Of a stretch of DNA of 64,000 bases, positions 28,068 through 59,559 are shown one piece after another. The stretch comes from Escherichia coli. GTDB taxonomy: Bacteria; Pseudomonadota; Gammaproteobacteria; Enterobacterales; Enterobacteriaceae. The stretch lies in NCBI RefSeq assembly GCF_001677475.2, contig NZ_CP015229.1, one strand, 5' to 3'. Each line of letters starts with the position of its first letter. Position 1 is the first letter of the stretch. Below the pieces are notes generated by a model. It saw nothing but the letters and a program-made list of their open reading frames with translations. It was not told where the DNA came from and did not search any database. The position numbers and the translations under genes were made by a program.

Positions 28068-28142
<75 letters not shown>

Positions 28143-28145
28143 ATA

Positions 28146-28221
<76 letters not shown>

Positions 28222-45254: not shown

Positions 45255-45344
45255 GATTGAATTTTGGCGGAGAGAGGGGGATTTGAACCCCCGGTGGAGT
45301 TGCCCCCACTCCGGTTTTCGAGACCGGTCCGTTCAGCCGCTCCG
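45255..45344 (-). tRNA. serU: tRNA-Ser (anticodon CGA), serU; prophage attachment site
   Basis: 90-nt tRNA with long variable arm, anticodon loop CUCGAAA, GGTTCAAATCC T-arm, CCA end. Confidence 0.9.
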
Positions 45345-45447
45345 GCATCTCTCCGTTCAGATGGTTGCCATGATGCCAGGAAATTTGGCATTTTAACAGT
45401 CCCTGTCCGTGCAATTTTGTTCAAGTGACGAGTTTGCGAGCAAAACG

Positions 45448-46345: not shown

Positions 46346-46421
46346 TCCTCTGTAGTTCAGTCGGTAGAACGGCGGACTGTTAATCCGTATGTCACTGGTT
46401 CGAGTCCAGTCAGAGGAGCCA
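46346..46421 (+). tRNA. asnT: tRNA-Asn (GUU)
   Basis: TCCTCTGTAGTTCAGTCGGTAGAACGGCGGACTGTTAATCCGT...GGTTCGAGTCC...CCA. Confidence 0.95.
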
Positions 46422-46734: not shown

Positions 46735-54738
<8,004 letters not shown>

Positions 54739-55319
54739 TTTTTCGTTATAATTTCTTACAGAGTGCTCCATTCGGGGCGCTCTGCTTTTACATTCGTTTA
54801 CTGTCAAACGCTCTATTAATATACCTGCATTTCCCATACCCCCCTGTTAGTTTGAAGATAGTCGAGCCTCCTTACTTTTTTTATAAAAGCTTTCACACAC
54901 GATATAACCACCTGTTCCACGCCAGCAGGAAACGAAGTACATGAGCTATTTTTGATAGCTATGATTGTTGCTATGTAGTCAAATTACGTTAATGTTTAGC
55001 TAATTACATCAAGAAGGAAGATATGTTAGGACGTACAAACAACATTAATTCATATTTCAATATTACAAATTACATCAGTACCACTCATAATAATGTATGC
55101 CTGTTAACGGAGATTTAAGTTCAGGTTGTCTTATTTATGATGGTGAAATACATTACAATGTTTTAGTTCCACCTGAATCGCGTTCGGTGTGACTATGATC
55201 ATTTTCGGTGAGTACTGCTTTGATCCAAAGGCTGGTTTTCTGTGATGATTAACCAGCCTCAGGGTATTGATGACACCACCGTTCATAACAGATCGGCATT
55301 ACTTTGCATACGTACTGCT

Positions 55320-56372
55320 TCATATTCTTGCCAAAACACTTTTTAATGCCTTTGCGAATTCATCCAGACTTATATTGTCAATTTTTTGCCCAACGACGAC
55401 TGACTCCGAGACATCGGCCATTGCGGGCCATCGCGTTTTGTAATCAGCATAAATTGCAACAACGGGGGTATTATAGGCACTTGCCATATGTAATATTGAG
55501 GTGTCAGGAGTTATTGCGATATAAGCATCTTTTATGATTGCTGCCGAACGTTTAATCGAGGGTGATAAGGATAAACGGAAGACATTATTATAACAATCCA
55601 CTAATACCCTGGCTTTATCTTCCCCTTTTGGTCCATGAACGATCACTATTGGCATATCTGTTTCATTTTTAATTTTTGCTATTAGATTTTCTGCTATCGA
55701 TAATGAAAATGTACGTTCCTGTGCACTACCTTCTAAATTGAGCGCAATGTAAGCTCCTAACGATCGCATTTCCTCGCGCACCTCATCGAGTACATCCTCG
55801 CTTAATGGCAATTCATATATTGGCCTGACTGCAGGAAAACCCGCTTCACGCATCATAAACGCCCATGTCATGGGTACGGGAGCCCTGAGATTCTGATCCA
55901 TCCGGGACGCGTTCTTACACAAAGGGGAATAGCACTTCATGGTTAAACCGACAACCTGAAAATTCGTTTTTGCTTTCAACTGACTGATAAATAACATCGT
56001 TTTCAGGTTCTTTTTACGCATCGCCTCTATACAAAGATCCGGCGTACCGTATTGCTGTGTTATGTTCTTCGCTAAATCTTTTATTTCTTTTAATGTTGCG
56101 TGATCCTGCATAGTCATTGTGACTAATGTTAATTTAGTCTGTTCAAGTTTGAGCGCATTAAAGACTTCTAAATTAATAGTCGAAGTAACAATTAAAAGAT
56201 GCTTTATTTTATGCATTTCAATCGCCCGAATAACTGGAAAGATGGCCATCGCATCGCCAATTTGATCGGGAATATGGATGACAACAAAGTCTGTTTTTCC
56301 AATATTGAAATTATTAGCTTTATAATCGTAGTAACTAAATGCAATACGTCTCAACAATGATGCTAAAAACAT
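55320..56372 (-). CDS. yeeL: Glycosyltransferase family 9 (heptosyltransferase-like) YeeL, intact
   Basis: 350-aa uninterrupted ORF between yeeJ and shiA. Confidence 0.6.
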   Translation of the reverse strand: MFLASLLRRIAFSYYDYKANNFNIGKTDFVVIHIPDQIGDAMAIFPVIRAIEMHKIKHLLIVTSTINLEVFNALKLEQTKLTLVTMTMQDHATLKEIKDLAKNITQQYGTPDLCIEAMRKKNLKTMLFISQLKAKTNFQVVGLTMKCYSPLCKNASRMDQNLRAPVPMTWAFMMREAGFPAVRPIYELPLSEDVLDEVREEMRSLGAYIALNLEGSAQERTFSLSIAENLIAKIKNETDMPIVIVHGPKGEDKARVLVDCYNNVFRLSLSPSIKRSAAIIKDAYIAITPDTSILHMASAYNTPVVAIYADYKTRWPAMADVSESVVVGQKIDNISLDEFAKALKSVLARI

Positions 56373-56686
56373 ACCTAACCTCGCCTCCCTACTGGTTATA
56401 ATGCAATGCAGTCTATCAGACTCATCAGGGTGCTATTTTGTACATATGCGGACTTTTATGTTTCATATCTCGAACCTGTGGGTGCTCTGCTTAATCCTTA
56501 AACAACACCAGCAACACCTGCGCTTTCATCTTCCATCGAATTTTTCATGTTGCCGTTAATCAGCTATAAAATCATTTGCAGATGCGCTCTGTCGAGGTAG
56601 TCTCATAAGGTTCGTTTATAGATCGACGGCAATGTGAGTTACCTTTTCCATACTAATTATAAAAAGACAGTACAAACAGGATCATT

Positions 56687-58003
56687 ATGGACTCCACGCT
56701 CATCTCCACTCGTCCCGATGAAGGGACGCTTTCGTTAAGTCGCGCCCGACGAGCTGCGTTAGGCAGTTTTGCCGGTGCCGTCGTCGACTGGTATGATTTT
56801 TTACTCTATGGCATTACCGCCGCACTGGTGTTTAATCGCGAGTTTTTCCCGCAAGTAAGCCCGGCTATGGGAACGCTCGCCGCATTTGCTACCTTTGGCG
56901 TCGGATTCCTTTTCCGTCCGCTCGGCGGTGTCATTTTCGGTCACTTTGGCGACCGACTGGGACGTAAGCGCATGTTAATGCTGACCGTCTGGATGATGGG
57001 CATCGCGACAGCCTTGATTGGTATTCTTCCTTCCTTCTCGACCATTGGGTGGTGGGCACCTATTTTGCTGGTGACACTGCGTGCCATTCAGGGATTTGCC
57101 GTCGGCGGCGAATGGGGAGGCGCAGCGTTGCTTTCCGTTGAAAGTGCGCCGGAAAATAAAAAAGCCTTTTACAGTAGCGGTGTACAAGTTGGCTACGGTG
57201 TAGGTTTACTGCTTTCAACCGGACTGGTTTCATTGATCAGTATGATGACGACCGACGAACAATTTTTAAGCTGGGGCTGGCGCATTCCTTTCCTGTTTAG
57301 CATCGTACTGGTACTGGGAGCATTGTGGGTGCGCAATGGCATGGAGGAGTCCGCGGAATTTGAACAACAGCAACATAATCAAGCGGCCGCGAAAAAACGC
57401 ATCCCGGTTATCGAAGCACTATTACGACATCCCGGTGCTTTCCTGAAGATTATTGCGCTACGACTGTGCGAGTTGCTGACGATGTACATCGTTACCGCCT
57501 TTGCACTTAATTATTCAACCCAGAATATGGGTTTACCGCGCGAACTTTTCCTTAATATAGGTTTGCTGGTCGGTGGATTAAGCTGCCTGACAATTCCCTG
57601 TTTTGCCTGGCTTGCCGATCGTTTTGGTCGCCGCAGGGTTTATATCACAGGCGCGTTGATCGGAACGTTGAGCGCATTTCCTTTCTTTATGGCGCTTGAA
57701 GCACAATCTATTTTCTGGATAGTTTTCTTCTCCATAATGCTGGCAAACATTGCGCATGACATGGTGGTGTGTGTACAACAACCGATGTTTACCGAAATGT
57801 TTGGTGCCAGTTATCGCTATAGTGGCGCTGGAGTCGGTTATCAGGTTGCCAGTGTGGTTGGTGGTGGATTTACACCTTTTATTGCCGCTGCACTCATCAC
57901 TTACTTTGCCGGGAACTGGCATAGCGTCGCCATTTATTTGCTGGCTGGATGCCTGATTTCCGCAATAACCGCTTCGTTGATGAAAGACAATCAACGCGCT
58001 TGA
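56687..58003 (+). CDS. shiA: Shikimate transporter ShiA (MFS)
   Basis: 438 aa, 12-TM MFS signature (GHFGDRLGRKRM). Confidence 0.85.
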   Translation: MDSTLISTRPDEGTLSLSRARRAALGSFAGAVVDWYDFLLYGITAALVFNREFFPQVSPAMGTLAAFATFGVGFLFRPLGGVIFGHFGDRLGRKRMLMLTVWMMGIATALIGILPSFSTIGWWAPILLVTLRAIQGFAVGGEWGGAALLSVESAPENKKAFYSSGVQVGYGVGLLLSTGLVSLISMMTTDEQFLSWGWRIPFLFSIVLVLGALWVRNGMEESAEFEQQQHNQAAAKKRIPVIEALLRHPGAFLKIIALRLCELLTMYIVTAFALNYSTQNMGLPRELFLNIGLLVGGLSCLTIPCFAWLADRFGRRRVYITGALIGTLSAFPFFMALEAQSIFWIVFFSIMLANIAHDMVVCVQQPMFTEMFGASYRYSGAGVGYQVASVVGGGFTPFIAAALITYFAGNWHSVAIYLLAGCLISAITASLMKDNQRA

Positions 58004-58104
58004 TAGTCTGGCGAAGATCATCCGATCTTCGCCTTACACTTTTGTTTCACATTCCTGTGACATACTATCGGATGTGCGGTAATTGTATGGAACAGGAGAC
58101 ACAC

Positions 58105-59559
58105 ATGAATAATAAGGGCTCCGGTCTGACCCCAGCTCAGGCACTGGATAAACTCGACGCGCTGTATGAGCAATCTGTAGTCGCTTTACGCAACGCCATT
58201 GGCAAATATATTACAAGTGGCGAATTACCTGATGAAAACGCCCGCAAACAAGGTCTTTTTGTCTATCCATCACTGACCGTAACCTGGGACGGTAGCACAA
58301 CCAATCCCCCCAAAACGCGCGCATTTGGTCGTTTTACTCACGCAGGCAGCTACACCACCACGATTACTCGCCCTACTCTCTTTCGTTCGTATCTCAATGA
58401 ACAACTTACGTTGCTGTATCAGGATTATGGTGCGCATATCTCTGTGCAACCCTCGCAGCATGAAATCCCTTATCCTTATGTCATCGATGGCTCTGAATTG
58501 ACACTTGATCGCTCAATGAGCGCTGGGTTAACTCGCTATTTCCCGACAACAGAACTGGCGCAAATTGGCGATGAAACTGCAGACGGCATTTATCATCCAA
58601 CTGAATTCTCCCCGCTATCGCATTTTGATGCGCGCCGCGTCGATTTTTCCCTCGCGCGGTTGCGCCATTATACCGGTACGCCGGTTGAACATTTTCAGCC
58701 GTTCGTCTTGTTTACCAACTACACACGTTATGTGGATGAATTCGTTCGTTGGGGATGCAACCAGATCCTCGATCCTGATAGTCCCTACATTGCCCTTTCT
58801 TGTGCTGGCGGGAACTGGATCACCGCCGAAACCGAAGCGCCAGAAGAAGCCATTTCCGACCTTGCATGGAAAAAACACCAGATGCCCGCATGGCATTTAA
58901 TTACCGCCGATGGTCAGGGTATTACTCTGGTGAATATTGGCGTGGGACCGTCAAATGCTAAAACCATCTGCGATCATCTGGCGGTGCTACGCCCGGATGT
59001 CTGGTTGATGATTGGTCACTGTGGTGGCTTACGTGAAAGCCAGGCCATTGGAGATTATGTACTTGCACACGCTTATTTACGCGATGACCACGTTCTTGAT
59101 GCGGTACTGCCGCCCGATATTCCTATTCCGAGCATTGCTGAAGTGCAACGTGCGCTTTATGACGCTACCAAGTTAGTCAGCGGCAGGCCAGGTGAGGAAG
59201 TTAAACAGCGGCTACGTACTGGCACTGTGGTAACCACAGATGACAGGAACTGGGAATTACGTTACTCAGCTTCTGCACTTCGTTTTAACTTAAGCCGGGC
59301 CGTAGCAATTGATATGGAAAGTGCAACCATTGCCGCGCAAGGATATCGTTTCCGCGTGCCATACGGGACACTACTGTGTGTTTCAGATAAACCGTTGCAT
59401 GGTGAGATTAAACTTCCCGGTCAGGCTAACCGTTTTTATGAAGGCGCTATTTCCGAACACCTGCAAATTGGCATTCGGGCGATCGATTTGCTGCGCGCAG
59501 AAGGCGACCGACTGCATTCGCGTAAATTACGAACCTTTAATGAGCCGCCGTTCCGATAA
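58105..59559 (+). CDS. amn: AMP nucleosidase
   Basis: 484 aa from MNNKGSGLTPAQALDKLDALYEQSV...; upstream ORF extension in track is not coding. Confidence 0.85.
   Translation: MNNKGSGLTPAQALDKLDALYEQSVVALRNAIGKYITSGELPDENARKQGLFVYPSLTVTWDGSTTNPPKTRAFGRFTHAGSYTTTITRPTLFRSYLNEQLTLLYQDYGAHISVQPSQHEIPYPYVIDGSELTLDRSMSAGLTRYFPTTELAQIGDETADGIYHPTEFSPLSHFDARRVDFSLARLRHYTGTPVEHFQPFVLFTNYTRYVDEFVRWGCNQILDPDSPYIALSCAGGNWITAETEAPEEAISDLAWKKHQMPAWHLITADGQGITLVNIGVGPSNAKTICDHLAVLRPDVWLMIGHCGGLRESQAIGDYVLAHAYLRDDHVLDAVLPPDIPIPSIAEVQRALYDATKLVSGRPGEEVKQRLRTGTVVTTDDRNWELRYSASALRFNLSRAVAIDMESATIAAQGYRFRVPYGTLLCVSDKPLHGEIKLPGQANRFYEGAISEHLQIGIRAIDLLRAEGDRLHSRKLRTFNEPPFR

Follow-up and report, generated by a model that had tools for sequence, protein, structure and literature searches.

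The closest described counterparts of the gene reported here are the lipopolysaccharide (LPS) heptosyltransferases WaaC and WaaF, the bacterial autotransporter heptosyltransferases (BAHT) Aah and TibC, and the accessory LPS-core enzyme WaaH. In the Aah/AIDA-I and TibC/TibA pairs, the heptosyltransferase decorates the passenger domain of the adhesin in the cytoplasm before export, and both enzymes are co-transcribed upstream of their adhesin genes. TibC has about 400 amino acids, an iron-binding cysteine cluster and a dodecameric assembly. WaaH (YibD), which is encoded outside the waa cluster, belongs to glycosyltransferase family 2 (GT2) and adds glucuronic acid to the LPS core. Here we analysed a 64,000-nucleotide stretch of an Escherichia coli chromosome (assembly GCF_001677475.2, contig NZ_CP015229.1; hereafter the window) and focused on yeeL, a predicted family-9 glycosyltransferase (GT9) gene with a GT-B fold on the minus strand at 55320..56372, next to the adhesin gene yeeJ. 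We put the probability at roughly 55% that YeeL is a functional orphan GT9 enzyme of the cytoplasm, probably ADP-heptose-dependent, that acts on LPS or a lipid-linked glycan independently of YeeJ.

The yeeL coding sequence starts with ATG and runs for 350 codons to its stop codon, with zero internal stops in the open reading frame (ORF) listing. Given the ORF's own composition (39% GC, stop probability 0.069 per codon), 350 stop-free codons would occur by chance with a probability of ~1e-11, and the listing holds no overlapping rival ORF of more than 77 amino acids on the opposite strand. This agrees with the initial annotation, which had called an intact 350-codon ORF and had described the K-12 copy as a disrupted pseudogene. 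The latter is also correct, although the lesion is a single nonsense codon rather than a frameshift or fragmentation: yeeL of K-12 MG1655 (1053 nt, b4497) lies between yeeJ and shiA and carries the RefSeq pseudogene flag 'internal stop'. The gene order asnT-yeeJ-yeeL-shiA-amn is the same in the window and K-12, which identifies the two yeeL genes as orthologues, and they share 95.3% nucleotide identity with zero indels over 1053 columns. Translation and a gap-free three-way DNA alignment located the sole K-12 lesion, a TAA, at codon 235. This codon is AAA (Lys) in the window (55668..55670, minus strand) and in NCTC9040, and CAA (Gln) in 13 other sampled E. coli genomes. Since most E. coli have CAA, a C-to-T change created the K-12 nonsense codon; it would cost the last 116 residues, the D-T-x-x-x-H donor motif among them. 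Besides codon 235, the window and K-12 proteins differ at 18 further amino acids. The window protein also aligns end to end with Enterobacterales orthologues of 52-73% identity, so that the comparison proposed earlier, with K-12 and with homologues of the functional type, turned up no internal frameshift.

The closest allele to the window yeeL is that of NCTC9040 (99.3% nucleotide identity), whose 350-amino-acid product WP_000477863.1, encoded at the same locus, is 99.1% identical to the window protein. The flanking shiA and amn genes are ~98% identical to K-12, compared to 95.3% for yeeL. Though divergent, the window allele of yeeL is an ordinary one for E. coli.

Of 5426 complete E. coli genomes, 5342 have the yeeL locus, 4926 of these with at least 80% query coverage. 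The K-12 stop allele was counted using a 55-mer probe centred on the TAA, for which each 28-nt megablast seed must span the mutation. It was found in 771 of the 5426 genomes (14%), including K-12 derivatives, BL21 and MC4100. We further read the annotation of 16 genomes, a small and non-random sample in which misassembled repeats may account for some of the yeeJ frameshifts. All but two of these, K-12 and LR-48, carry yeeL as an intact gene of 350 codons (14 genomes); the stop in LR-48, at codon 60, arose independently. In other strains, yeeL is interrupted by IS1, IS3, ISSen4 or ISKpn26 insertions. The 90%-identity protein cluster of YeeL holds 10,923 member sequences, and the exact window protein is already public (for example ANO89751.1, on 172 contigs) under the name 'glycosyltransferase family 9 protein'. 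The earlier suggestion that an uninterrupted yeeL is a peculiarity of this strain is not supported by these counts. Intact yeeL is the normal E. coli state, with annotations in thousands of genomes, and K-12, BL21 and their relatives are mutants. The gene belongs to a near-universal E. coli set, and K-12 and its relatives lost it by the change of CAA to TAA at codon 235.

YeeL matched the Pfam family PF01075 (Glyco_transf_9) at 29.7 bits (E=5.1e-7), above the gathering score of 22. An exhaustive HMMER scan over 1.84 billion representative sequences returned a small family of homologues: 28 sequences at E-values of 1e-30 or below, many of them E. coli fragments, with full-length relatives at 21-38% identity. 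Across 32 homologues (down to 21% identity) 14 positions are invariant, among them G39-D40, N212, P289-D290-T291, H295 and W315, and the window protein keeps every one; R220 is nearly invariant. A search of the PDB with the single YeeL sequence returned only WaaF, at E=1.6, and the family profile was needed to go further. The 32-homologue profile matched WaaC (E=2e-7) as well as 3TOV (E=2e-6), the latter over residues 27-306.

In WaaC structures, D13, K192 and D261-T262...H266 are the donor-binding and catalytic positions. The profile alignment places D290/T291/H295 of YeeL on D261/T262/H266 and pairs R220 with K192 and the GD motif with its 3TOV counterpart, such that the catalytic and donor residues of GT9 enzymes (G39-D40, R220, D290-T291 and H295) are present. 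The codon for Asp40, the predicted catalytic base and counterpart of WaaC Asp13, lies at 56253..56255 on the minus strand and encodes a residue that is invariant in the 32 family members. Codons 290-295, D-T-S-I-L-H, occupy 55488..55505 on the same strand and would form the motif that binds the donor sugar or phosphate. We make no claim for an equivalent of WaaC E222, since the alignment column holds Gly in YeeL. An AlphaFold2 model built with the family alignment showed two domains at high confidence (predicted local distance difference test 93.4, predicted template modelling score 0.91). When this model was compared to the PDB using Foldseek, 3TOV, WaaF and WaaC ranked at the top with E-values of 4e-14 to 1e-10, consistent with a GT-B fold. 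YeeL is, by profile, predicted fold and kept motifs, a genuine family-9 glycosyltransferase, and the earlier label 'GT9-like' stands on the PF01075 match, the profile match and the predicted fold.

An open frame of this kind could still be inert, either a silenced, horizontally acquired remnant or a decaying pseudo-enzyme as in K-12. This reading draws on the GC content of yeeL, 38.9% (36% at third codon positions) compared to ~50% in yeeJ, shiA and amn, which suggests that yeeL is an old horizontal acquisition and may be silenced by H-NS. It also draws on the repeated independent inactivations and on the promoter scan, in itself uninformative, which returned 5 sites compared to 7.1 expected by chance, with none convincing 5' of yeeL and no convincing sigma-70 promoter. 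We nevertheless consider it decidedly unlikely. The ratio of nonsynonymous to synonymous substitution rates (dN/dS) is 0.15 relative to K-12, 0.20 relative to NCTC9040 and 0.09 relative to a 73%-identical orthologue, and values of 0.09-0.20 indicate that yeeL codes for a protein under purifying selection. The lower values (0.09-0.15), the retention of all invariant catalytic residues and the conservation of yeeL across several Enterobacterales genera all speak against decay. In addition, transposon-directed insertion-site sequencing (TraDIS) of the sequence type 131 (ST131) strain EC958, the source of the only recorded yeeL phenotype, found insertions in yeeL (EC958_2299) enriched, with a log fold change of 7.46, placing the gene among 30 hypermotility genes that were not individually validated (PMC5425062). 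This enrichment implies that intact yeeL is expressed and has an effect.

A different possibility is that YeeL is a dedicated glycosyltransferase of the adjacent YeeJ, analogous to Aah/AIDA-I and TibC/TibA. The arrangement of the two genes does not resemble those pairs. In the window, yeeJ encodes an intact, long-variant inverse autotransporter adhesin of 2667 amino acids (46735..54738, plus strand), with an IAT_beta domain and 16 Big_1 stretches in its ORF. It is convergent with yeeL, and it appears to have a terminator of its own: a terminator-like 11-pair hairpin with a T-rich tail behind it lies at 54759..54784 on the plus strand, 21 nt past the yeeJ stop, and would end yeeJ transcription ahead of yeeL. 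The TibC sequence was not matched even with the YeeL family profile.

The two genes are also not inherited together. Among the 16 sampled genomes, yeeJ is intact in only five, and in 10 of the 14 genomes with intact yeeL, yeeJ is frameshifted, disrupted by an insertion sequence (IS) or reduced to a remnant beside the yersiniabactin island. K-12 presents the reverse combination, a dead yeeL and an intact yeeJ. Overall, the integrity of one gene showed no association with that of the other (Fisher p=1). In a published survey, complete yeeJ was found in just 35% of E. coli strains (PMC6714894), compared to the yeeL locus in 98% of complete genomes. K-12 YeeJ is surface-exposed and promotes biofilm formation (PMC5595812), and the fact that it works while K-12 yeeL is dead counts against a need for YeeL. 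The two YeeJ papers (PMC5595812, PMC6714894) mention neither yeeL nor glycosylation. Literature that names yeeL together with yeeJ treats the K-12 pseudogene as an integration site or reports phi80 integration between the two; phage phi80 is able to lysogenise at this non-canonical yeeJ/yeeL site in K-12 derivatives (PMC6016239).

Orthologues at 52-73% identity are isolated genes at varied loci, and no inverse autotransporter lies beside yeeL in the six other contexts examined. The E. albertii orthologue is located between yciI and yciA, that of a further enterobacterial genome has maeB on one side and the eut operon on the other, and those of Erwinia and Rosenbergiella follow a major facilitator superfamily (MFS) gene unrelated to shiA. 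A conserved yeeL-MFS pair, to which shiA in E. coli and the upstream MFS genes of Erwinia and Rosenbergiella had pointed, was considered and rejected, since the Erwinia MFS protein is unrelated to ShiA (E=1.1) and three other contexts have no MFS neighbour. Two contexts abut asnT without yeeJ: the order is mtfA-asnT-yeeL-shiA-amn in Pseudocitrobacter, and hchA-yeeL-asnT-mtfA on gut-metagenome and genome contigs that carry the orthologue P0043 and are named E. coli by NCBI. In both, the yeeL stop lies within ~50-95 bp of the tRNA-Asn. The asnT gene itself (tRNA-Asn; 46346..46421, plus strand, in the window), which directly adjoins yeeL in these relatives, is a known island integration site (PMC5595812). 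Since yeeL lies directly beside asnT without yeeJ in these relatives, the 8-kb yeeJ of E. coli has the look of an island that entered at asnT. YeeL would then act independently of YeeJ, with their adjacency a by-product of the yeeJ insertion. Because yeeL and yeeJ are not co-inherited, a YeeJ-dedicated transferase is strongly disfavoured and very improbable. The initial annotation had reasoned from adjacency that YeeL could modify YeeJ, and this part of its proposal is not supported, given the convergent orientation, the terminator, the lack of association and the orthologues without an adhesin.

We then consider what YeeL may act on if not YeeJ. Of the out-group homologues whose gene context is informative, the nearest is P0108 (35% identity, E=1e-61); it shares its cluster with WecG, an initiating phosphoglycosyl transferase, glycosyltransferase genes of families GT2, GT4 and GT9, and a pair of Wzy_C genes of the O-antigen ligase type. 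A second homologue, P0115, has Wzy_C, Bac_transf, WecG, GT4 and a flippase as neighbours. In addition, the 777-amino-acid metagenomic protein P0149 (L021, 1955-4288) has a Wzy_C membrane domain fused to a full-length YeeL-like GT9 domain, and its gene adjoins a GT4/polysaccharide-deacetylase gene. The contigs with two further distant homologues, P0109 and P0143, are too short to show gene context. The P0108 cluster was rejected as a canonical waa cluster, as its second GT9 is no WaaC/WaaF equivalog and its Wzy_C genes have no NCBIfam match.

These clusters also lend themselves to another reading, in which YeeL acts on a lipid-linked glycan other than LPS, perhaps with a donor other than ADP-heptose. 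Examples are the enterobacterial common antigen, undecaprenyl-phosphate-linked repeat units of O-antigen or capsule, and glycolipids of the periplasm or elsewhere. The initiating phosphoglycosyl transferase, WecG and flippase of the P0108 and P0115 clusters are hallmarks of the undecaprenyl-phosphate pathway, and the neighbouring GT9 there is not a WaaC/WaaF equivalog. However, a repeat unit tied to particular serotypes is hard to square with an orphan gene that 5342 of 5426 genomes carry whatever their O or K type, and by established CAZy knowledge the characterised GT9 enzymes act overwhelmingly on the inner core of LPS or lipooligosaccharide. We regard a non-LPS glycan as possible but doubtful.

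For the favoured reading, that of an orphan GT9 enzyme working on LPS or a lipid-linked glycan, the WaaC/WaaF-like predicted fold, the donor motif, the basic domain and the relatives in glycan clusters or fused to Wzy_C together lead us to infer a lipid-linked acceptor. The N-terminal (acceptor) domain is basic, with an isoelectric point of 9.3, and the C-terminal domain is acidic, at 5.2, a distribution that fits an anionic membrane acceptor. The donor sugar is predicted to be most probably L-glycero-D-manno-heptose from ADP-heptose, because nearly all characterised GT9 enzymes use ADP-heptose. YeeL would transfer this sugar on the cytoplasmic side of the inner membrane, onto a lipid-linked oligosaccharide that is anionic. 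The likeliest acceptor would be the LPS core or lipid A-core; the modification would be accessory, perhaps conditional, and such an accessory function could be lost in many lineages. Of the two targets first put forward, YeeJ and LPS, the second is the better-supported direction, albeit unproven.

Several observations weigh against this assignment. The PF01075 match is confined to residues 232-321, and the acceptor-binding half of the protein is divergent. It includes a family-specific N-terminal extension of ~27 residues, with a helix at residues 2-15, an invariant D16 and a nearly invariant Y17. The NCBIfam scores of YeeL (37.2 bits for TIGR02193, cutoff 185.3; 19.6 for TIGR02195, cutoff 134.6; 16.7 for TIGR02201, cutoff 170.2; 15.6 for RfaQ, cutoff 467) are far under the equivalog cutoffs for heptosyltransferases I, II and III and RfaQ, and YeeL is therefore none of the known LPS enzymes. 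The gene does not lie in a waa cluster; its neighbours are yeeJ and shiA, and the vicinity holds no glycan genes. By their gene content, the P0108 and P0115 clusters are generic surface-glycan clusters, and Wzy_C domains occur in protein O-oligosaccharyltransferases too. To our knowledge, published E. coli core structures contain no unassigned heptose, and defects in the core usually make cells less motile, not more. Finally, the repeated independent inactivation of yeeL indicates that the gene is dispensable.

The motility phenotype brings in a further candidate target, namely another protein, such as a classical autotransporter (for example Ag43) or a flagellar or motility protein, with YeeL as a non-BAHT protein O-heptosyltransferase. 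The hypermotility signal of yeeL disruption in the TraDIS data is unlike the usual phenotype of LPS defects, and the N-terminal domain, divergent and extended in this family, leaves room for other acceptors. On the other hand, the predicted structure is far nearer to the LPS heptosyltransferases than to TibC. None of the four YeeL cysteines (114, 147, 152 and 260) is invariant in the family alignment, hence there is no conserved cluster like the iron finger of TibC. The distant relatives lie in glycan-assembly clusters rather than by protein substrates, and no conserved neighbour gene indicating a protein target was found among the orthologue contexts examined. We consider this explanation unlikely. 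A bolder version, in which YeeL founds a distinct GT9 subfamily (marked by the 27-residue N-terminal helix and D16/Y17) that glycosylates a protein such as the Ig-like repeats of YeeJ-type inverse autotransporters or a motility-related surface protein, is highly improbable. If true, type Ve adhesins would gain their first glycosylated member, and protein heptosylation a second route, outside the BAHT enzymes, that would have been overlooked because the K-12 copy is dead.

Returning to the LPS or lipid-linked glycan reading, the standard laboratory strains lack an intact copy of this conserved orphan GT9 gene. If YeeL adds a sugar to the LPS core, core pictures based on K-12 would miss a modification that most natural isolates can make, which would matter for motility, for surface properties and for sensitivity to phage and serum. 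This would interest LPS specialists and hold no conceptual surprise.

The remaining features of the locus were read from the window and its alignments. Upstream of yeeL, a putative Shine-Dalgarno-like GAGG (56379..56382, minus strand) lies 6 nt 5' of the ATG, and a second GGAGG is found at 56385-56389 on the same strand. Between yeeL and the divergently oriented shikimate transporter gene shiA (56687..58003, plus strand) lie 314 bp of intergenic sequence. The ORF called mechanically for amn (57949-59559) overlaps the end of shiA; since the annotated E. coli amn corresponds to 58105-59559 (484 amino acids), the longer ORF is an in-frame upstream extension and not the gene itself. An Rfam search over 54500-56800 found no RNA family at E-values of 0.1 or below.

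On the yeeJ side, the mechanical ORF begins at an upstream TTG (46660), and the ATG at 46735 is the likelier start. The translation contains near-identical internal repeats of roughly 190 amino acids, for example two copies of 'VTLNIPAQQVVTNNSDSVQLTATVKDPSNHPVAGITVNFTMPQDVAANF...', and the 3' part of the gene is just 89-92% identical to K-12 and NCTC9040. The yeeJ-yeeL intergenic region (54739-55319) can be aligned to K-12 only over its last ~149 nt. Its first ~430 nt (54739 to ~55170) are common to NCTC9040 and a minority of E. coli genomes, and in most genomes matching begins only at ~55165-55178. A 51-amino-acid ORF lies within this region at 55131-55286 on the minus strand.

Further upstream, a tRNA-Ser is located at window positions 45265-45354, and prophage-type genes (dicB, an exonuclease and an integrase) are annotated upstream of tRNA-Ser in E. 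coli genomes aligned to 40000-64000. The order tRNA-Ser, mtfA, tRNA-Asn, yeeL recurs on the Pseudocitrobacter and P0043 contigs (L006, 11104-11179, and L008, 11155-11230); the orientation of the entire block relative to shiA is reversed on L008. Elsewhere in the window, tRNA-Gly(tcc) and tRNA-Thr(tgt) lie side by side, 3 nt apart, at 28068-28221 on the minus strand.

Compared to the known systems, YeeL shares only 12-14% identity with WaaC (HepI; 2GT1, 2H1H, 6DFE), WaaF (HepII; 1PSW) and 3TOV, and WaaC does not have the extra N-terminal helix of YeeL. Judged by both profile score and location, YeeL is not a WaaC, WaaF or WaaQ equivalog. It departs from the BAHT enzymes TibC and Aah in sequence, structure rank, operon arrangement, co-inheritance and cysteine cluster: the BAHT genes are co-transcribed with an adhesin gene, whereas yeeL is convergent with yeeJ and not co-inherited with it, and YeeL, at 350 amino acids, is smaller than TibC and has no conserved cysteines. 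The role proposed for YeeL resembles, in concept only, that of WaaH/YibD, with a lone gene elsewhere on the chromosome that would contribute a non-stoichiometric sugar to the LPS core.

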